Below, piece after piece: positions 54,651-64,000 of a DNA stretch of 64,000 nt. A model generated the notes under the pieces. The model did not search any database, had not been told where the DNA came from, and saw only the letters and a list, made by a program, of their open reading frames with translations. A program made the position numbers and the translations under genes. This DNA comes from Firmicutes bacterium UBA5389 (GTDB lineage: Bacteria; Bacillota; DTU025): positions 19,867-83,866 of the forward strand of contig DHON01000122.1 of assembly GCA_002409965.1 (NCBI GenBank), given 5' to 3'. How positions within the stretch are numbered: the stretch's first letter is position 1; each line of letters starts with the position of its first letter.

Positions 54651-54738
54651 TAGCGTCATGGAGCAGGTACAACCCGCGCATGGTCTTGCGGGTGTGGCAC
54701 CGCCTCCACCCGGACACGATGCGAGGGAGGGCACGCGT

Positions 54739-56217
54739 ATGGAGAAATTCGATATCTTCCGGCACATTGCGGAGCGCACGGGAGGAGATGTCTACATAGG
54801 CGTCGTCGGCCCGGTCAGGACGGGCAAGTCCACGTTCATCTCAAGGTTCATGGACCTGATCGTCCTGCCCAACATGAAGGATGCCTACGAGAAGGAGCGA
54901 ACCCGTGACGAGCTGCCTCAAAGCGGCGCCGGCAAGACCATCATGACTACCGAGCCCAAGTTCGTGCCGGGCGAGGCGGTCGAGATCACACTGGCCGAGA
55001 AGACCCGAGCAGCGGTGCGAATGGTTGACTGCGTTGGGTACACCGTGCCGGGCGCCCTGGGATACGAGGAGGCTAACTTCCCGCGTATGGTGCGAACGCC
55101 CTGGTTTGACGAGGAAGTATCGTTTCAAGAAGCGGCCGAAATCGGAACGGAGAAGGTCATACAGGAGCACTCCACCATAGGGCTGGTGGTCACGACAGAC
55201 GGGTCGATCACGGAGATCAAGAGGGAAGACTACGTAGACGCAGAGCGCCGAGTCATCAGCGAACTGAAGGAACTGGGCAAGCCGTTCATCGTGGTGCTCA
55301 ACTCGATGCACCCCGCCTCTGACGACACCCGCGGTCTGGGTGAGACCCTGGCGGCCGCGTACGATGTGCCCGTCATCCCAGTGGACTGCCTGCGCATGTC
55401 GAGTGAGGATATCATGGGCGTTCTCGACGGCGTGTTGAGCGAGTTCCCAGTGCGCGAAATATCGGTACGCTTGCCTGACTGGGTTGCGGAACTGGATGAG
55501 ACGCACCCGGTGCGCGCCGGGTTCATCGCCAGTGTCCGACAGGCGGTGGAGTCTGTGGACAGAGTCCGAGACGTGCAGGGCGCGGTCCAGATGCTCGGGT
55601 TGTCGCCTAACGCCCAGTCTGCCGTGGTGGCCCTGCTCGATCTGGGAACCGGGCGCGTCTCAATCGAGCTGACTGCCCCGAGGGCGCTGTTCTACACGGT
55701 CATCTCGGAGGTGATCGGGGCGGAGGTTGCAGGCGATTCCGATGTGATGAGGATGATGCGTAGCCTCGCTCACGCCAAGCGCGAGTACGACAAGGTAGCT
55801 ACCGCTCTCGATCAGGTGCGTTCGAAGGGCTACGGCATCGTGATGCCGTTCCTGGACGAGATCGCCTTCGAAGAGCCGGACATCATCAGGCAGGGCAGCA
55901 GGTGCGGCGTGAGGCTGAAGGCCATGGCCCCATCGATTCACATGATCCGTGCCGACATCAAGACGGAAGTCACGCCGCTTGTGGGAACGGAGAAGCAGAG
56001 CGAGGAGTTTGCGCGGCGCATTGCGGAGGAGTTTGCGGAAGACCCTAGCAAGATCTGGCAGACGGAGTTCCTGGGAACGTCCATGCAGGACCTGATCAGG
56101 GAGGGCATAGAGGCAAAACTGGCTCACATGCCCACCAACGCCCAGGAGAAACTCCAGGAAACGCTGCAGAAGATCGTGAATGAGGGAAGCGGCGGGCTGA
56201 TCTGTATCATTCTGTAG
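54739..56217 (+). CDS. spoIVA: Stage IV sporulation protein A (spore-coat basement-layer ATPase)
   Basis: MEKFDIFRHIAERTGGDVYIGVVGPVRTGKSTFI (Walker A). 492 aa with a conserved C-terminus ...GLICIIL. GAGGGAGG RBS. Confidence 0.9.
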   Translation: MEKFDIFRHIAERTGGDVYIGVVGPVRTGKSTFISRFMDLIVLPNMKDAYEKERTRDELPQSGAGKTIMTTEPKFVPGEAVEITLAEKTRAAVRMVDCVGYTVPGALGYEEANFPRMVRTPWFDEEVSFQEAAEIGTEKVIQEHSTIGLVVTTDGSITEIKREDYVDAERRVISELKELGKPFIVVLNSMHPASDDTRGLGETLAAAYDVPVIPVDCLRMSSEDIMGVLDGVLSEFPVREISVRLPDWVAELDETHPVRAGFIASVRQAVESVDRVRDVQGAVQMLGLSPNAQSAVVALLDLGTGRVSIELTAPRALFYTVISEVIGAEVAGDSDVMRMMRSLAHAKREYDKVATALDQVRSKGYGIVMPFLDEIAFEEPDIIRQGSRCGVRLKAMAPSIHMIRADIKTEVTPLVGTEKQSEEFARRIAEEFAEDPSKIWQTEFLGTSMQDLIREGIEAKLAHMPTNAQEKLQETLQKIVNEGSGGLICIIL

Positions 56218-56297
56218 CCGGGCCCCCGACTCGCTGCGCCTGAAGTAATAATGGCGCGCGGGGCTGGAAAACATACTGGTGGAAGGGGGCGGAGGGC

Positions 56298-56570
56298 ATG
56301 ACCAAGTCCGACCTGGTTGATTCGGTAGCCGCCAAGGCCGGGATGACCAAGAAAGACAGCGCCCGGGCGGTCGACGCAGTCTTCGACACCATAAAAGAGC
56401 AGCTCAAGACGGGTGACAAGGTGCAGCTCGTTGGGTTCGGCAGCTTCGAGGTGAAGCAGAGAGAAGCCCGCGTTGGCCGCAACCCGAAGACCATGGAGGA
56501 AATACGCATTCCAGCGCGCAGAGTGCCGGTGTTCAGGCCAGGCAAGGAACTGAAAGACTCGGTTATGTAG
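56298..56570 (+). CDS. hup: Nucleoid protein HU
   Basis: 90 aa. MTKSDLVDSVAAKAGMTKKDSARAVDAVFDTI...GFGSFEVKQREARVGRNPKT. Confidence 0.95.
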   Translation: MTKSDLVDSVAAKAGMTKKDSARAVDAVFDTIKEQLKTGDKVQLVGFGSFEVKQREARVGRNPKTMEEIRIPARRVPVFRPGKELKDSVM

Positions 56571-56880: not shown

Positions 56881-58002
56881 TCACTGTGATCCGCACTCTC
56901 TATGACATCTTACTAAGTGTGGGGAGGTGGAGTCCGGGTCGGCGCTAGGGCCCACGCCCACGGCCACGCCCGGGCATGGGTCTGAGTACTTCGACAATGG
57001 GGCCAGAACGGGATACTCCGTCGCGCACATGCGAGCCGCATTCGGGCAGCGGTGGGCGAAACCACAGCCGCGCCGTTGCTCATGCTCCTCGCCGCTGGCC
57101 GACGCCCGGGCGCCGGCGCCGTTAGGACCCAAAGCGCGAGTCTGCCGTGAGCTACGTCTGCTGAGCCGGTGACCGCTGCCGGGGATGGCTGACAACAGTT
57201 GCTGGGTATACGGGTGAGACGGTCGCGCGAAAAGCTCTTCGGCAGGGGCCGATTCCACGATCTGCCCGCGATACATGACGGCCACAGTGTCGCTCATATA
57301 GTACACTACCCGCAGATCGTGCGAGATGAGCAAGTAGGAGAGTCCGTATTCCCTCTGGAGGTCCTGCAGCAGCCCGATTATCTGGGCTTGCACCGACACG
57401 TCCAGCGAGGACAGAGGCTCGTCCGCCACTATGAACTGCGGGCGCATGGCCAGGGCGCGCGCGATGCCCACACGCTGGCGCTGCCCGCCGCTGAGCTGGT
57501 GTGGGTATCGATCAAGATGGTCCGGGGCCAGGCCGACCCGCCTAACCAAGGATTGCGTCTCGCGTTCGCCGTCGGCGGGCTTGACCCCGCGCGCGGCCAG
57601 AGCTGTTCCGACGATGCGGCGAACTGTATATCTGGGGTTGAGCGAGCTGTATGGGTTCTGAAAGATGATCTGGGCCTTGTCCTTTAGCTCGCCGCGGCCG
57701 AGGCGGTCACGGCCCCATACCGCGGATCCTTCGTAGAAGACTTGCCCGGACGTGGGCTCGGTCAGCCCCACCAGAGTGCGGCCGAACGTGCTCTTGCCGC
57801 AGCCTGATTCGCCGACGAGGCCGACGGTCTGACCGCGAAATATGTCGAGCGTGACTCCGTCCACGGCCCGAGTGCGCCTAGTGGCTGCGCCGCCCAGTCG
57901 GCGCGCGAGGAATGACTCGGTCATTATGAAGTGTTTGGTGACATCCACTGCGGAAACCAGTGGTGTACGAGGGTCTCTTGGCGTCAAGCCCATCACCTCC
58001 AT
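56881..58002 (-). CDS. Peptide/nickel-family ABC transporter ATP-binding protein (OppF/DppF-like)
   Basis: Walker A GESGCGKST, signature LSGGQRQRVGIARAL, Walker B IVADEP, and a C-terminal oligopeptide-type extension. The start is ATG 58002 (possibly leaderless) or ATG 57993 (after GGAGGTG). Confidence 0.85.
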   Translation of the reverse strand: MEVMGLTPRDPRTPLVSAVDVTKHFIMTESFLARRLGGAATRRTRAVDGVTLDIFRGQTVGLVGESGCGKSTFGRTLVGLTEPTSGQVFYEGSAVWGRDRLGRGELKDKAQIIFQNPYSSLNPRYTVRRIVGTALAARGVKPADGERETQSLVRRVGLAPDHLDRYPHQLSGGQRQRVGIARALAMRPQFIVADEPLSSLDVSVQAQIIGLLQDLQREYGLSYLLISHDLRVVYYMSDTVAVMYRGQIVESAPAEELFARPSHPYTQQLLSAIPGSGHRLSRRSSRQTRALGPNGAGARASASGEEHEQRRGCGFAHRCPNAARMCATEYPVLAPLSKYSDPCPGVAVGVGPSADPDSTSPHLVRCHRECGSQ

Positions 58003-58070: not shown

Positions 58071-58099
58071 TTGACATCGCCTGTTCTGGATGATAGCAT
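58071..58099 (+). promoter_or_regulatory. Promoter of the riboswitch-controlled ABC operon
   Basis: TTGACA (58071-58076), a 17-nt spacer, then TGaTAGCAT (58091-58099). Confidence 0.5.
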
Positions 58100-58149
58100 T
58101 CAGGGTAGCGACAGTTGAATACGTGCGTGAACGATGTGCGCCTCCCGGC

Positions 58150-58285
58150 GCGCATCCGCTGAATCTTCCCTGGTGGAAGAGCGGGGGACCCAAATCCCAG
58201 TGGATGGGGCGAATCCTGCGAAGTGCAGGTAGGGCTATCACCTTCGGCCCGAGCCCGTCAGCTAACCTCGCAAGCGAAATGAAGG
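58150..58285 (+). promoter_or_regulatory. c-di-AMP riboswitch (ydaO-yuaA motif) aptamer
   Basis: The conserved blocks are present in the right order. They are CCGCTGAATC (58156), GAGCGGGGGACCCA (58179-58192), GGGGCGAATCC (58206-58216), GGTAGGGC (58228-58235) and AGCCCGTCAGCTAACCTCGCAAGCG (58252-58276). They match the blocks I recall from the B. subtilis ydaO leader. Confidence 0.75.
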
Positions 58286-58296
58286 GACGCTCATCC

Positions 58297-58329
58297 GTGC
58301 CCGGGTGTGTCCCTGGGCACTTTTTGTTT
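58297..58329 (+). terminator. Intrinsic terminator (riboswitch expression platform)
   Basis: GTGCCCGGG tgtgt CCCTGGGCAC followed by TTTTTGTTT. It lies 120 nt upstream of the SBP start codon. Confidence 0.8.
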
Positions 58330-58451
58330 CGGCCCATTGTGCCTTTGTCTCTTCATCTGCAGCTTGCTCTCCACTTGCTTATCTTGCGTTCCCCATCAGC
58401 TAATCGCACGTCTATCTGGAAATCCAGTATGGACGGAGGGTGATCATATCT

Positions 58452-60014
58452 ATGAAGCACCGTTGGATAATGGCCATTTCGATAGGTCTATTGCTTGCGT
58501 GTGCGGCGACCTCTCTGCCTGTGTCGGCGAGCGGCGCGAGGAAGATCCTCTCAGTGATTGTGGATACAACCGCCGACCGCTCAGATGAAGCCCAGGCGAT
58601 CTCCGAGTATCTCCGCGCCGTTGGCGTGTCGGCGGAAGTGCGGGTATGGGAGTGGAGCGCGCTCAAGGAGCGCATTCTGGCTGGGGAAAGGCAGATGTAC
58701 CTTACGGACTGGGGCAGCGCTTACTTCGACCCGTTCGATCTGGCGGTACCCAAGCTCAAGACGGGTGATCGCGGCAACTACTCCTTCTACAGCAACCCGC
58801 GTTTCGACGCGGCGCTCGACGCGGCGCTCGGTATGAGCAGCGCCGAGGCCGAGGCGCGACAACGCGTCTACTTCGAGGCGCAGGACATTCTCTGGGAAGA
58901 TGCGCCGTGGATCTTTGGCTACGCTCTGCTTGAGACCGAGGCGGCCCGAGCCGATGTGCTCGACTGGCGCCCATCGATGGACTCCAGGATCAACTTGCAC
59001 GATGTGGGGCTGAAGCGCGGCGACACTATCGTGGTGGGGATGGCGGGCGACAGCATATTGACGCTGGATCCCGCGGCCTACCGCGACCGCCTGACTGAGA
59101 CCGTGATCAGGAACATGTTCGATGGCCTTGTTACGCGCACCCCAGACGGCAGGGTCGTTCCGGAGATAGCAGAGTCGTGGACCGCGCTGTCCGACACTGA
59201 GTACGTGCTCAAGATCCGCCGTGGCATCAAGTTCCACAATGGGGACGCGCTCACTGCGGACGATGTGGTTTTCAGCTTCGACCGGGTCATCCGCGATGGA
59301 GCCATGGGAGGCAGGACCTCGCCGCGCAAGGGACTGCTTGGCACTCTGGTCGCTGTGGAGAAGATCGACAGCCACGCAGTGAGGTTCAGACTGTCATCGC
59401 CTTTCTCCGTTTTGCTGCAGGCGCTGGTGCATGTGCAGATAGTGCCCAAAGGCTACCTGTTGAGCGTGGGCGACGATGCGTTCGCCCGCAAACCCGTAGG
59501 CTGCGGTCCGTTCAAGTTCGTCGAAGGTCGTCTAGACGACAAGATAGTGATGGAGAGATTCGGCGACTACTACGGGGGTTCGCCCGATCTGCAACCGGTC
59601 GGTCCCGCTCGCGTGAAGAGGGCCATATTCCGCATGATGCCCGATCCCACCGTGCGGGTTGCCGCGCTGAAAACGGGTGAGGTGAGTATCATCCAGACCG
59701 TTCCGGCCCATCTGGCGGCCAACCTCTTGCGCGACCGCAACCTGCAAGTGAAGTCGGCTGAAGGGACTAGGGTGTATTGCGTCGAGATGAACTGCGCGCG
59801 GCCGCCATTTGGCGATGCCCGGGTGCGCAAGGCCATGAACCATGCAATCGACTGGGACACCATTCTCAACACTATATACGCTGGAGGCGCCTCGAGGCTA
59901 GCAACAGCCTTCCTGCCCAGCGGGTTCGGGCACAACCCGGATCTGGAGCCGTACGGTTACGATCCGCAGAAGGCGCGGGCGCTTCTGGCTGAAGCAGGGT
60001 ATGGTGCTAGATGA
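58452..60014 (+). CDS. ABC transporter substrate-binding protein, family 5 (OppA/DppA/NikA type), apparently circularly permuted; probable lipoprotein
   Basis: Signal/lipobox LLLAC. Residues ~35-190 look like the normal C-terminal third of family-5 SBPs. Residues ~195-524 look like the normal N-terminal two thirds, ending at the YDPQKARALLAEAGY motif. Confidence 0.8.
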   Translation: MKHRWIMAISIGLLLACAATSLPVSASGARKILSVIVDTTADRSDEAQAISEYLRAVGVSAEVRVWEWSALKERILAGERQMYLTDWGSAYFDPFDLAVPKLKTGDRGNYSFYSNPRFDAALDAALGMSSAEAEARQRVYFEAQDILWEDAPWIFGYALLETEAARADVLDWRPSMDSRINLHDVGLKRGDTIVVGMAGDSILTLDPAAYRDRLTETVIRNMFDGLVTRTPDGRVVPEIAESWTALSDTEYVLKIRRGIKFHNGDALTADDVVFSFDRVIRDGAMGGRTSPRKGLLGTLVAVEKIDSHAVRFRLSSPFSVLLQALVHVQIVPKGYLLSVGDDAFARKPVGCGPFKFVEGRLDDKIVMERFGDYYGGSPDLQPVGPARVKRAIFRMMPDPTVRVAALKTGEVSIIQTVPAHLAANLLRDRNLQVKSAEGTRVYCVEMNCARPPFGDARVRKAMNHAIDWDTILNTIYAGGASRLATAFLPSGFGHNPDLEPYGYDPQKARALLAEAGYGAR

Positions 60015-61039
60015 TACGCCTGGGCCGCGTGCAGGTCAAGGTGATCGAGCGCGTAGTGGCCACGATTCCGTTGGCGCTGGCTGTGGCCCTGGCGGCTTTT
60101 GTGCTGATGCGAGCGATACCAGGCGACCCTGTGGACATCATGATGGGGGAGGGGGCCAGCTCCTCAGAGGAGGAGATGGCCGCCCTCCGCACTGGGCTGG
60201 GGTTGGATCAGCCGATCCACCGTCAGCTGGTGGTCTACCTTAAGGCGCTTCTCCGGGGAGACCTGGGCTATTCAATAGTACGGTCGCGCCCGGTGGCACA
60301 GATGATACGCGAGGCGCTGCCCGCAACGATCGAACTTGCCATGTGCGCCATGCTGTTCGCCCTGGCTCTGGGGATCCCCGTGGGAGTGGTGTCGGCGCTC
60401 AAGCACAACACCGCGTTCGACAGGGTGAGTACGGCCGTGTCTTTCATCGGTGTATCTCTTCCCGCATTCTGGCTCGGCATAGTAGGTATCCTCGTGTTCT
60501 CCATGACTTTCGGATGGCTGCCCACATCTGGGCGCATCGCCTACGGTATGGAGCCCCGGCACATTACCGGTCTCCTCACACTGGACGCATTGCTCACAGG
60601 GGATATGACGGCGTTGGGCAACGCTCTTCGCCATCTCTGCCTTCCCGCTGCCGCGCTGGGGTTGGGTGTTGCGGCCGTAGTGGCCAGAGTTACCCGCTCA
60701 AGCATGCTCGACGTGTTGGGGTCGGACTATGTTCTGTTTGCGAGGGCTAAGGGAGTGCCCGAGCCGGCAGTGACCACGCGCCACGCTCTGCGCAACGCGA
60801 TGATTCCCACAGTGACGCTGGTAGGGCTGCAGTTCGGTTCGCTTCTGGGTGGGAACATGATTGTGGAGACCATATTCGGGTGGCCCGGCCTAGGAAGGGT
60901 GGTCGTGGATGCGATATTCGCTCGAGACTACCCGGTGGTGCAGGCGGCGGTGATGGTGTACGCGCTTACCTTCGTGGGGGTGAACCTCATTACCGACCTA
61001 CTATATACGGTGTTGGATCCCAAGATGGCCCTTGAGTGA
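60011..61039 (+). CDS. ABC transporter permease (OppB/DppB-like)
   Basis: 342 aa with 6 TM helices and an EAA-type loop (YVLFARAKGVPEPAVTTRHALRNA). ATGA overlap with the SBP gene. Confidence 0.9.
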   Translation: MIRLGRVQVKVIERVVATIPLALAVALAAFVLMRAIPGDPVDIMMGEGASSSEEEMAALRTGLGLDQPIHRQLVVYLKALLRGDLGYSIVRSRPVAQMIREALPATIELAMCAMLFALALGIPVGVVSALKHNTAFDRVSTAVSFIGVSLPAFWLGIVGILVFSMTFGWLPTSGRIAYGMEPRHITGLLTLDALLTGDMTALGNALRHLCLPAAALGLGVAAVVARVTRSSMLDVLGSDYVLFARAKGVPEPAVTTRHALRNAMIPTVTLVGLQFGSLLGGNMIVETIFGWPGLGRVVVDAIFARDYPVVQAAVMVYALTFVGVNLITDLLYTVLDPKMALE

Positions 61040-61989
61040 CCAGGACCGCTGTGGAGGTGAGACCCATGGGGCAGGCTTCGCTGCACACTGACGAACTGTA
61101 TCAGGGCGCTCTTGCGCGCTCCGCCGACATGTCAGGCTCAAGCGGGGCGAGGGCAGGCTTCTGGCCCAGACTGATGTCGCACAGGGGAGGACGGCTCGGC
61201 CTGATCATAGTCTTGGCCTATGTGGTGGTCGCCGTGGCTGCCCCGGTATTGGCCCCATACTCTCCCGGCGCTGTGGACCTGGTAAGACGGTTGGTTCCGC
61301 CCGGGCTGAGAACAGGCAACCTACTCGGCACTGACCAGCTGGGCCGGGATATTCTGTCGAGGATAATGCACGGAGCCAGAGTGTCGATTCTGGTGGGCCT
61401 GGCCACAGTGTGCATCTCGGCTTTCGTTGGCGTGGGACTGGGCATGGTTGCGGGCTACTATGGAGGCGTGCTGGACCGAGCGCTCGCCCGATTCACCGAG
61501 TTGCTGCTGGCGTTTCCGTACCTGATATTCGTGATAGGAGCGATGTCGGTCATGGGCCCCGGCTTTTGGAATCTGGTGTGGGCCCTCAGTTTCAAAGGAT
61601 GGGTAGAGTTCTACAGGCTGGCGCGGGCTCTGGTCATGTCGGAGAAGAATCGGGAGTACGTGGAGGCTGCGCGCGTGCTGGGCAGGTCCGATGGCGTGAT
61701 TCTCACGTGCGAGATACTTCCCAACATCGTCAACTCCATGCTGGTTCTGGGCACATTGCGCATGGGGAACATGATCGTTATGGAGTCTTCCCTGAGCTTC
61801 CTGGGACTTGGCATTCCGCCTCGGATGCCCGCGTGGGGCTCCATGATAAACGATGGACGGCGCTACATGCTTACCTCACCGTGGGTGGCAACCTTTCCAG
61901 GGCTTGCGCTGGCGCTGTTGGTGCTGGGGATGAACCTGCTCGGAGAGGGATTGCGCGATGTGTTGGACCCCAAGATGATGGAGGGATAG
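61036..61989 (+). CDS. ABC transporter permease (OppC/DppC-like)
   Basis: LLGTDQLGRDILSRIMHGARVS N-terminal motif and EAA loop (YVEAARVLGRSDGVIL). GTGA overlap with the upstream gene. Confidence 0.9.
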   Translation: MTRTAVEVRPMGQASLHTDELYQGALARSADMSGSSGARAGFWPRLMSHRGGRLGLIIVLAYVVVAVAAPVLAPYSPGAVDLVRRLVPPGLRTGNLLGTDQLGRDILSRIMHGARVSILVGLATVCISAFVGVGLGMVAGYYGGVLDRALARFTELLLAFPYLIFVIGAMSVMGPGFWNLVWALSFKGWVEFYRLARALVMSEKNREYVEAARVLGRSDGVILTCEILPNIVNSMLVLGTLRMGNMIVMESSLSFLGLGIPPRMPAWGSMINDGRRYMLTSPWVATFPGLALALLVLGMNLLGEGLRDVLDPKMMEG

Positions 61990-61997
61990 TATCGGCA

Positions 61998-63098
61998 ATG
62001 GGATCTGTGATGATGCATGAGGTAGCTAGTGGCGTAGACGCCGGCGCGGCCGCGGGAGCCGGCATGTTGCTTGACGTGCGCAATTTGCACACTGTTTATC
62101 CTTCAGCCCGCGGGAATGTGCGAGCCGTGAGAGACGTTAGTCTGACCGTGGCGCCCCGAGAGGTACTTGGCGTAGTGGGCGAATCGGGATGCGGGAAGAG
62201 CGCGCTCATGCTGTCGATAATGCGATTGGTGCCTCGACCGGGGCGCATTGTGGAAGGCAACGTGCGGCTGGATGGGGTCGATCTGCTTGAGCTATCGCCG
62301 GCCCAGATGCGCGATGTGCGAGGCAAGAGGATAGCCATGGTGTTTCAGGACCCAATGACCACCCTGAACCCAGCGCACCGGGTGGGCGATCAGATCGTCG
62401 AGTCGCTGCGCGTACATGGCATGACGCCGTCCGGCGCAGGCAGGCCGGAAGCCCGACGCGATTGCCTGCGGTCGCGCCTGTGGCAGGGAAGGCGCGACCG
62501 CGAGGAAGAGCGCGACTACGTGATCGAGTTGATGAGACGGGTGGGCATCGCATCGCCGGAGCACCGTCACCTCGAGTATCCGCACCAGTTTAGCGGGGGT
62601 ATGCAGCAGAGGATCATGATCGCCATCGCTCTTGCGTGCAAGCCGCGCTTGCTGCTGGCAGACGAGCCCACCACGGCGCTGGATGTGACCATACAAGCGC
62701 AAGTGCTCGACTTGATGGAAGAGATCAACCATGACATGGGCACTGCCATAGTCATAGTCACCCACGACCTTGCGCTTGCGGGCGATTTCTGCGACAACAT
62801 AGCGGTGATGTACGCAGGGCAGATTGTAGAGTGCGGGCCGGCCGATGCGATCATGGAGGATCCCCTTCATCCGTACACCCGCGGGCTCTTGCTCTCCATG
62901 CCGCGCCTGGGCAGCAGGCAGCCGCTGCACGCGATATCGGGAGAAGTGCCCGATCTCACCTCGGTGGGCGCTGGTTGCGCCTTCGCTCCCAGGTGCGAAC
63001 GGCGAACGAGCCGGTGCGAGGCTGAGGAGTCGCCGCTTGTGCAGACTCGCGATGGACGGGTCATCCGCTGTCACGCAGGGACGATCGTGTCTCTATAG
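61998..63098 (+). CDS. ABC transporter ATP-binding protein (OppD/DppD-like)
   Basis: Walker A GESGCGKS, signature FSGGMQQRIMIAIAL, Walker B LLADEPTTALD, and a C-terminal CAFAPRC motif. The longer ORF from 61410 is out-of-frame read-through of the permease gene. Confidence 0.9.
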   Translation: MGSVMMHEVASGVDAGAAAGAGMLLDVRNLHTVYPSARGNVRAVRDVSLTVAPREVLGVVGESGCGKSALMLSIMRLVPRPGRIVEGNVRLDGVDLLELSPAQMRDVRGKRIAMVFQDPMTTLNPAHRVGDQIVESLRVHGMTPSGAGRPEARRDCLRSRLWQGRRDREEERDYVIELMRRVGIASPEHRHLEYPHQFSGGMQQRIMIAIALACKPRLLLADEPTTALDVTIQAQVLDLMEEINHDMGTAIVIVTHDLALAGDFCDNIAVMYAGQIVECGPADAIMEDPLHPYTRGLLLSMPRLGSRQPLHAISGEVPDLTSVGAGCAFAPRCERRTSRCEAEESPLVQTRDGRVIRCHAGTIVSL

Positions 63099-63209
63099 TC
63101 CGCGAGTCATGCAGCTTCCCGGCTTCTATCGGCGGCCGTAGCGCGAGGCGAACTCCGGATCTGCCGAGACTCAGGCGATTGGTGGGCCTTCCGCGAAAGG
63201 CCTTCCGTG

Positions 63210-63268
63210 GAGACCTGCGAGACCCGGGAGACCTGCGAGACCCGGGAGACCTGCCAGACCTGCGAGTC
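63210..63268 (+). repeat. Tandem repeat with unit GAGACCTGCGAGACCCGG (18 bp, built of 9-bp half units), ~3 copies
   Basis: Read directly from the sequence, in a non-coding region downstream of the ABC operon. Confidence 0.85.
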
Positions 63269-63917
63269 TCGTGACAAGTTGGACAAAGCCCTGTTCAGCG
63301 CGGGTATGCCGATGCGCGACCCGTCTCGGACTGTGCTGCGGCGCCGCTTCCTCCCATGCGAAAGCCCCAGCTACACGATGCGGGCCGAGAGGCAGGCATC
63401 AGCGCAGCGCGGCGTTGCGGGAGGTAGGGGCAGAAAAGCGGGTGATTGCATGCCCAGGCACATGGCAACAAGTGGGTACGTCAATACTTGACGGAAAATC
63501 CAGGCATGTGCTCACATTCTGACGCGAGCACTGCAACAAGTGAGCATCCGGCCCAGATGTCCCCATGTTTTCGCCGTTTTGGCCCATGTTTCTGCCGCCC
63601 TGCGCGCCTCTGGGCGGCGAATTCCCATGGACTGTTATCAGGCGGCTGTCCAATGGCTGCGAGAGCCAGTACGTTCCCTGGAATTGGCCGGCGCATGCTC
63701 ACTAATTGATGCACCCATGCTCACATTTGGCCGCTACCCGCGGAATTTTCGTCAAAGAGCGAGCATCCCAGTTTGTACCATACGCAGCCGGGTCAACGGC
63801 GCGATCACATCTATGGAGTGGCTGCGGCTTCAGGAAGCACGAAAGCGGGGGCAAGCTCAGGAAACCGATTGTGCGGCCTTCCAGAGCGTCTGTGAGAATC
63901 GGCTTCGGTTCCACCTT

Positions 63918-63943
63918 AGGGCAAAGTCATAGGGCAAAGTCAG
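63918..63943 (+). repeat. Direct 13-bp repeat AGGGCAAAGTCAK, 2 copies, abutting a -35 element
   Basis: Read directly from the sequence. Possible operator or UP-like element. Confidence 0.7.
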
Positions 63944-63945
63944 GG

Positions 63946-63974
63946 TTGAATGGCCTGCTGATGTCTGCTATAAT
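63946..63974 (+). promoter_or_regulatory. Near-consensus sigma-A promoter firing out of the window
   Basis: TTGAAT (63946-63951), a 17-nt spacer, then TGcTATAAT (63966-63974). The downstream 26 nt end in GGGTCGGGGCGTG at the window edge. Confidence 0.55.
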
Positions 63975-64000
63975 AGCGATTGTGAAAGGGTCGGGGCGTG

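Follow-up and report, generated by a model that had tools for sequence, protein, structure and literature searches.

A natural circular permutation in a family-5 substrate-binding protein encoded with a Dpp/Opp-type importer in Firmicutes bacterium UBA5389

Gene organization of the locus

The stretch of DNA analysed here (the window) comprises 64,000 nt of Firmicutes bacterium UBA5389 (assembly GCA_002409965.1, contig DHON01000122.1, positions 19,867-83,866, forward strand) and contains the gene of a 520-residue substrate-binding protein (SBP) of family 5 (cluster C), designated P0001, which is followed by genes of a Dpp/Opp-type ATP-binding cassette (ABC) importer and preceded by a cyclic di-AMP (c-di-AMP) riboswitch (Table 1). 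A preliminary description of this DNA had proposed that the polypeptide is circularly permuted, and sequence comparisons confirm this chain order. We consider it highly probable that P0001 is a working exported receptor of the adjacent importer and that its chain represents the family-5 (cluster C) fold in a naturally permuted order.

The open reading frame (ORF) could start either at a GTG (58440) or at an ATG (58452), and since a GGAGG motif is located at 58435-58439 the ATG is the likely start. The N-terminal export signal might be cleaved at an A-x-A site after VSA or at a weak lipobox, LLAC (residues 14-17, Cys17); in the structural model described below residues 2-20 form a helix and residues 22-27 are of low confidence. 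The lipobox position reads LLVC in the closest relatives and plain A-x-A signal peptidase I sites occur in many family members; in others (Thermaerobacter, Fermentithermobacillaceae) a clear lipobox, LAGC or LSAC, stands ahead of a linker. As the N-termini of the family mix A-x-A sites and lipoboxes, export is, judging from these sequences, conserved across the family and lipidation of P0001 itself uncertain; of the combined signal and lipobox noted earlier, the signal peptide stands and the lipobox is doubtful.

Table 1. Features of the permuted SBP gene and of its surroundings (positions in the window).
Feature	Position	Strand	Basis
Promoter-like site (TTGACA, 17 nt spacer, TAGCAT, TG before second hexamer)	58071..58099	+	Consensus match only
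c-di-AMP (ydaO-type) riboswitch aptamer	58147..58291	+	Rfam RF00379, 90.3 bits
Intrinsic terminator-like hairpin (9 pairs, 7 G-C) and T-run, directly after aptamer	58297..58330	+	Sequence
Circularly permuted family-5 SBP gene (P0001, 520 aa)	58452..60014	+	ORF call, Pfam, alignments with PDB entries and relatives, AlphaFold
Export signal peptide, residues 1-27 (MKHRWIMAISIGLLLACAATSLPVSA/SG)	58452..58532	+	Sequence; family N-termini compared
Segment C' (residues 30-189), last ~160 residues of canonical relatives (P0124 349-513; 6ofq 377-498)	58539..59018	+	Alignments
Join K188-R189-G190-D191	59013..59024	+	Alignments with relatives, canonical termini
Segment N' (residues 191-517), P0124 mature residues 29-354	59022..60002	+	Alignments
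DppB/OppB-type permease	60011..61039	+	BPD_transp_1_N + BPD_transp_1
DppC/OppC-type permease	61066..61989 (ORF open from 61036)	+	OppC_N + BPD_transp_1
DppD/OppD-type ATPase	62010..63098	+	ABC_tran + oligo_HPY
Second Opp/Dpp-type ATPase (F-like), divergent from riboswitch operon	56881..58002	-	ABC_tran + oligo_HPY

Chain order of the binding protein

Aligned with P0124, a relative of 513 residues in canonical order, P0001 falls into two blocks whose order is swapped: residues 191-517 correspond to P0124 residues 29-354 (48% identity, E-value 8e-109) and residues 24-189 to P0124 residues 349-513, up to the very last residue of that protein (41% identity, E-value 4e-34). The same two swapped blocks are obtained with P0125, which is also canonical. 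E-values of this magnitude exclude a chance match, and because the two blocks cover the whole canonical protein (in relatives at 41-50% identity the entire mature chain is covered, with no loss and no duplication), P0001 is a rotated chain of single length and not a duplicate. The chain order read earlier from the sequence, i.e., the usual last third at residues ~35-190, a restart of the mature N-terminus at ~195, a stop where the first segment would normally follow, and a permutation as opposed to a duplication, is thereby borne out. At the join the former C-terminal tail (...DSRINLHDVGLK) meets the former mature N-terminal strand (TIVVGMAGDSILTLDP) via about three residues (R-G-D); canonical C-termini end in ...INLHDVGLKDN before the stop codon, and canonical mature N-termini start with ...TLVVG. 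The chain of P0001 stops after the helix DPQKARALLAEAGY; the loop behind that helix is where the new ends are located.

SBP_bac_5 (PF00496), the sole Pfam family matching P0001, scores 272.9 bits (gathering score 32.4), and the match is split into two stretches, the better of which pairs residues 235-518 with positions 2-279 of the 368-position model; the profile search proposed earlier as a check thus gave no single collinear alignment. In the PDB, 104 distinct sequences match P0001 at E-values up to 0.001, and those listed (60) all belong to the cluster C type of binding proteins, with no collinear match among them. Against the Helicobacter pylori DppA chain (6ofq), P0001 residues 187-517 align with 26-369 and residues 37-154 with 377-498, and the identical swap is seen with GbpA (3m8u) and GsiB (1uqw). 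A query of 201 residues spanning the join was also searched against 1.84 billion cluster representatives, of which about six full-length 50%-identity clusters match it in one stretch; canonical relatives of the P0124/P0125 type, much nearer to P0001 than the PDB chains, surfaced in the same search. E-value thresholds proved unusable for estimating the size of the family, as canonical relatives at ~50% identity also score below 1e-30.

Predicted structure

An AlphaFold2 model of P0001, built from a 50-sequence alignment of the family, shows one compact fold (predicted local distance difference test, pLDDT, 92.8; predicted template modelling score, pTM, 0.86) with pLDDT values of 94-97 over the join. 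As a control we modelled the canonical sister protein L074 of Caldanaerobacter subterraneus (pLDDT 88.9). Secondary structure elements of P0001 residues 34-166 and 192-514 match one-for-one those of L074 residues 364-494 and 35-357, i.e., one string of elements is a rotation of the other. Foldseek, which depends on sequence order, aligned the permuted model with cluster C entries of the PDB over 341-383 columns (about two-thirds; TMq 0.46-0.55, best E-value 1e-24), as compared to 489-549 columns for the control and the same entries (TMq 0.72-0.86, best E-value 4e-54). A partial alignment of the permuted and a full alignment of the canonical protein is the contrast expected from a circular permutation. 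All top Foldseek matches to the P0001 model are cluster C SBPs (probability 1.0), and no solved structure in permuted order is found among the Foldseek matches or the PDB sequence matches listed.

The rotation could be accommodated in the following way. In the ancestral order the two chain ends would have lain side by side in lobe I, where they would now be joined by about three residues, and new ends would have been opened in lobe II, in a surface loop that connects the helix 'DPxKAxxLLxEAGY' to the strand after it. Folded P0001 would then be the same bilobed clamp, with its signal peptide or tether hanging from the other lobe. We take both chain ends of DppA to lie in domain I and the position of the new break (DppA residues ~340-345) in domain II; the shift of the tether to the other lobe follows if these domain positions hold.

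Distribution and phylogeny

The best 120 matches to P0001 in a search of 5.8 billion proteins are all full-length and all permuted. Chain order was assigned by tblastn with two probes at 80 related loci (L008-L087) from GTDB species representatives, among which L008-L068 are permuted (59, plus two truncated) and L069-L087 canonical (19). Over all 87 loci fetched, 66 are permuted and 19 canonical, and the permuted order, which the preliminary description had recommended looking for in relatives, is present in at least 59 species-representative genomes. Its carriers are mostly Bacillota (Limnochordales, Thermaerobacter, Symbiobacterium, Candidatus (Ca.) Fermentithermobacillaceae and many metagenome-assembled genomes (MAGs) of fermenters), with further members in Armatimonadota / Ca. 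Sysuimicrobiota, Thermodesulfobacteriota and a few MAGs labelled Pseudomonadota or Myxococcota. Complete genomes of Thermaerobacter and Ca. Fermentithermobacillus also encode it; the exact protein P0112 of Thermaerobacter marianensis has no record in the contig index. An assignment of all 80 related loci to the permuted type (including Caldanaerobacter, Syntrophomonadaceae and Chloroflexota) was rejected, since the N-terminus of L074 is canonical and the two-probe tblastn makes L069-L087 canonical, and the wider taxonomic claim is therefore withdrawn. Summaries that give only the overall matched query span make two swapped high-scoring segment pairs resemble a full-length collinear match, so that permuted members are over-counted.

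For a maximum-likelihood tree the permuted sequences were first rotated back to canonical order. The 66 main permuted rows form one clade (Shimodaira-Hasegawa-like approximate likelihood ratio test, SH-aLRT, 99) whose sister group is the canonical Thermoanaerobacter/Caldanaerobacter clade (99), and the single origin of the main permuted clade is shown at the level of this sequence phylogeny. Trees built separately from the N-part and the C-part recover the same canonical sister clade, which argues for the rotation of one gene. A chimera, in which the two parts derive from two SBP paralogues fused by recombination, would fit the somewhat greater divergence of the C-part from canonical relatives (41-53% identity, as compared to 48-59% for the N-part), but the C-terminal third is more variable among canonical proteins too, and given the agreement of the two trees we regard a chimera as improbable, though it fares best among the alternatives to a rotated, functional receptor gene.

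The rotation happened once, in an ancestor of the main clade; as we picture it, the starting gene resembled the canonical, c-di-AMP-riboswitch-controlled 'OppA9' of Thermoanaerobacter/Caldanaerobacter, and the rotated gene spread from there over several phyla. A tandem duplication of which both ends were later lost, as suggested earlier, is a plausible but hypothetical route; tandem SBP copies, fused doubles, leftover C-part fragments and intermediates were not found in any of the 87 loci. Two permuted loci lie in MAGs with proteobacterial labels. L018, in a MAG labelled Betaproteobacteria, carries a permuted gene 70% identical to that of the window together with a Bacillota-type c-di-AMP riboswitch and nests among Bacillota MAGs; it probably represents a mis-binned contig rather than a lateral transfer. 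The second, L041, is from a MAG labelled Pseudomonadota.

Importer operon and substrate

The stop codon of the P0001 gene overlaps the start of the first permease gene (ATGA, 60011-60014), and a second permease gene follows, in agreement with the coupled permease genes described previously. In the version of the gene callers the divergent ATPase gene reaches 58155 (424 aa), and its first codons would run into the aptamer on the opposite strand; 58002 (MEVMGLTPRDP...) is the more likely start. The arrangement with one ATPase gene upstream on the minus strand and one downstream on the plus strand is found in 11 relatives (L005, L009, L011, L012, L014, L017, L018, L024, L025, L026 and L015, the available sequence of the last stopping ahead of the downstream ATPase). 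P0001 would thus appear to be the exported receptor of an adjacent Dpp/Opp-type ABC importer composed of the SBP, two permeases, one ATPase and the divergent second ATPase, and its function appears to be unaltered by the rotation.

The same permuted module is also found in a different context: it heads the giant hybrid histidine kinases P0122 (1770 aa) and the 1911-aa ORF of locus L060 (5953-11685), in which it is followed by three SBP_bac_3 domains, (PAS), HisKA, HATPase_c and a receiver domain. An extra C-part in the L060 ORF, indicated by a Pfam match seemingly past the N-part, was rejected, as BLAST finds none. The module seems to have been recruited in these kinases as a sensor input, and P0001 might by analogy serve mainly a kinase or chemoreceptor instead of a transporter. 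Its gene is however translationally coupled to the permease gene, a complete importer operon surrounds the permuted gene in nearly all loci, and the window has no adjacent kinase gene; a mainly sensory role therefore seems no more probable than a chimera, if not slightly less so.

Among the NCBIfam equivalog models, all of which score far below their cut-offs (GsiB, Opp4A, NikA, DppA, SapA, OppA), GsiB is best with 158.8 bits against a cut-off of 594, as compared to 128.2 against 1005 for DppA and 100 against 947 for OppA, and substrate specificity is for this reason not transferable from them. A substrate call from binding-site motifs was dropped, since the WTGD aspartate is conserved in neither chain order. 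A different hint comes from members without a riboswitch, which in both chain orders adjoin a GntR/UTRA regulator, a C26 (gamma-glutamyl-hydrolase-type) peptidase and AtuA, in some cases also DUF4387 (permuted L001, L007, L037-L042, L047-L051, L059 and L061; canonical L071 and L075-L083). This neighbourhood resembles a so far uncharacterised module for uptake and catabolism, and it hints at a substrate class; we found no literature linking AtuA with DUF4387. Transport function and substrate class are inferred, and the importer might take up an osmotically relevant solute, e.g., small peptides or gamma-glutamyl compounds, and our guess would be a high-affinity importer of small peptides or gamma-glutamyl-type compounds.

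Assembly, selection and expression

Pairwise ratios of non-synonymous to synonymous substitution rates (dN/dS) against five relatives lie at 0.06-0.14 for C-part, N-part and a stretch of 41 codons around the join alike, and the 50-member family alignment (down to 54% identity) retains 90 invariant columns. The P0001 gene is thus under purifying selection. A decaying relic, in which a rearranged SBP gene has lost its function but still has an open reading frame, would be in line with the weak RNA evidence (see below), but it is very improbable in view of dN/dS values of about 0.1 in both segments and the join, the invariant columns, the confident single fold predicted by AlphaFold, and the retention of signal peptide, ribosome-binding site, riboswitch and coupled permease genes. 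Of the earlier statement that this is an intact, expressed permutant, intactness is well supported by dN/dS, by the 66 permuted loci and by the pLDDT of 92.8, and expression only weakly, by metatranscriptome contigs of 95-99% identity.

The permuted order could also result if a tandem duplicate of an ordinary SBP gene had been collapsed or mis-joined, and the window does come from a metagenome-type assembly, but such an artefact, which the preliminary description had named as a possible refutation, has next to no probability left: the identical protein with identical neighbours is found on at least 23 contigs that belong to separate assemblies (ENA, JGI and Logan), the region 58100-60100 is spanned without a single difference or joint by Logan contigs of three independent studies, the permuted order recurs in 66 loci including complete genomes, and a second SBP copy within 6 kb is absent in all loci checked.

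Several points nevertheless weigh against P0001 being a working, singly derived receptor with the cluster C fold. RNA support comes from one metatranscriptome, in which 6% of the sampled words were recovered in short contigs at 95-99% identity, and a related strain or carried-over DNA could be the source of these contigs. The three-dimensional equivalence to the bilobed cluster C clamp is a reading of AlphaFold predictions throughout, and the confidence of the model derives from the alignment of the family itself. The divergent permuted clusters P0176 and P0263, which have the same break point, fall outside the main clade on a long branch in the free tree, so that a second origin is possible; in an approximately unbiased (AU) test, one clade for all 68 permuted rows is not rejected and scores better (p 0.98). 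Finally, the aspartate of the DppA motif W-T-G-D, which presumably binds the amino group of the peptide, is replaced by Ala or Ser ('TDWGS[AS]') in permuted and canonical members of the subfamily alike, and the ligand may for this reason not be an ordinary peptide.

The c-di-AMP riboswitch and flanking regions

The riboswitch that had been noted in the leader is of the c-di-AMP class, its match to RF00379 covering model positions 1-134 of 134 (gathering score 38, E-value 1e-20). An aptamer followed by a terminator is the usual layout of an OFF switch. The hairpin at 58297-58330 is probably the expression platform of such a switch, and the operon would be read through the riboswitch and its terminator; high c-di-AMP should then stop uptake, as far as this logic can be read from the leader, and such control would be expected where the imported solute is osmotically relevant. 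All 13 close relatives tested with Rfam have the same riboswitch ahead of the permuted gene. A covariance model of these 13 sequences and that of the window (14 in all), run on 84 sources, matches 41 of them, 36 permuted and five canonical (L069, L070, L072, L073 and L074). The crystallised RNA of 4QLM/4QLN is, apart from engineered loops, the leader of L074 (3239-3372, Caldanaerobacter subterraneus), and it has been placed 5' of 'OppA9' in T. tengcongensis (RNA-Puzzles paper, PMC5393176). The same leader in the canonical sister 'OppA9' indicates that the association with the riboswitch is older than the permutation.

Just upstream of the importer locus, at 54658-56570, the window encodes the sporulation ATPase SpoIVA and a DNA-binding protein of the HU type. 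Taken with a G+C content of ~62%, these genes assign the organism to the spore-forming Bacillota of high G+C content known from metagenomes of fermenters or biogas plants. Downstream of the ATPase gene, the gene-poor region 63100-64000 contains a tandem repeat (63209-63266) with a 9-nt unit GAGACCTGC in about six copies and an 18-nt unit in 2.9 copies, which reads 'ETCETRETCETRETC' in a 94-aa ORF that is probably no gene.

Wider implications

Cluster C binding proteins such as DppA, OppA and NikA are textbook receptors and frequent biosensor scaffolds. As riboswitch, importer genes and accessory genes are common to both, the permuted clade and its canonical sister represent a natural matched pair, a natural experiment in which the influence of chain connectivity and tether position on folding, export, lipidation and permease docking could be studied. 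The pair could also help to establish where a large fold accepts new termini, which is of use for engineered insertions and split sensors, and how circular permutations arise and get fixed. One could further speculate that the clamp works in either chain topology within the same transporter and that the rotation is nonetheless not neutral, in that it would move the tether and the free C-terminus to lobe II, alter the hold over the permease and enable use in multi-domain sensors such as P0122 and L060; we consider this extended proposal rather unlikely to hold as it stands. On the practical side, tools that depend on chain order (Pfam with its two-piece match, equivalog models, Foldseek) under-score permuted SBPs, and permuted and canonical members are easily confused.

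Comparison with known systems

P0001 shows whole-chain homology to the cluster C / PF00496 SBPs (Escherichia coli DppA, 1DPP/1DPE and 8Z1Z; GsiB/YliB, 1UQW; GbpA/HbpA, 3M8U; H. pylori DppA, 6OFQ; and Bacillus anthracis 5U4O), with which it also shares DppBCDF-like operon partners; the AlphaFold model suggests the same bilobed fold. All of these are canonical, whereas in P0001 the last ~160 residues stand ahead of the first ~330. To our knowledge, classifications of SBPs list no permuted subclass for cluster C; nor did we find a published permuted protein of the OppA/DppA type (cluster C / family 5) in the literature, and permutation in this class of proteins thus seems to be previously undescribed.

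Among ABC binding proteins, natural circular permutation is known from the glucose-binding protein TpMglB-2 (Tp0684) of Treponema pallidum, assigned to 'Type Ic / Cluster Bc' (Brautigam et al., 2016, PMC4990184); its permutation is conserved, leaves a working receptor and occurs mainly in tethered binding proteins (PMC4990184). P0001 shares with it the permutation but not family membership: TpMglB-2 is a type I / cluster B sugar binder with another break point, characterised by a crystal structure and binding data, whereas P0001 belongs to family 5 / cluster C and is known from its sequence and a predicted model. It is not a member of the 'Cluster Bc / Type Ic' family, as neither the Pfam matches nor the PDB matches listed include cluster B homology. 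Circular permutation is itself a known evolutionary move; what seems to be new is a conserved permuted subclass of family-5 SBPs extending across phyla.

With regard to regulation, the uptake of osmotically active solutes is known to be held back by c-di-AMP; in Listeria this extends to oligopeptides, and the control of opp there is indirect, via CbpB, Rel and CodY (PMC10117814). The importer of the window would in contrast be controlled directly, through the RNA, which links an Opp/Dpp-type importer to a c-di-AMP riboswitch.

The closest known counterpart is the 'OppA9' group of Caldanaerobacter subterraneus (T. tengcongensis) and its Thermoanaerobacter relatives (L069-L074), the sister clade in our tree (SH-aLRT 99), whose N-parts are 56-57% and whose C-parts 51-54% identical to those of P0001. 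This group has the same A-B-C-D-F importer genes and the same c-di-AMP riboswitch leader as the permuted clade, and its chain runs in canonical order from signal and lipobox through the N-part to the C-part, the two parts that are swapped in P0001.

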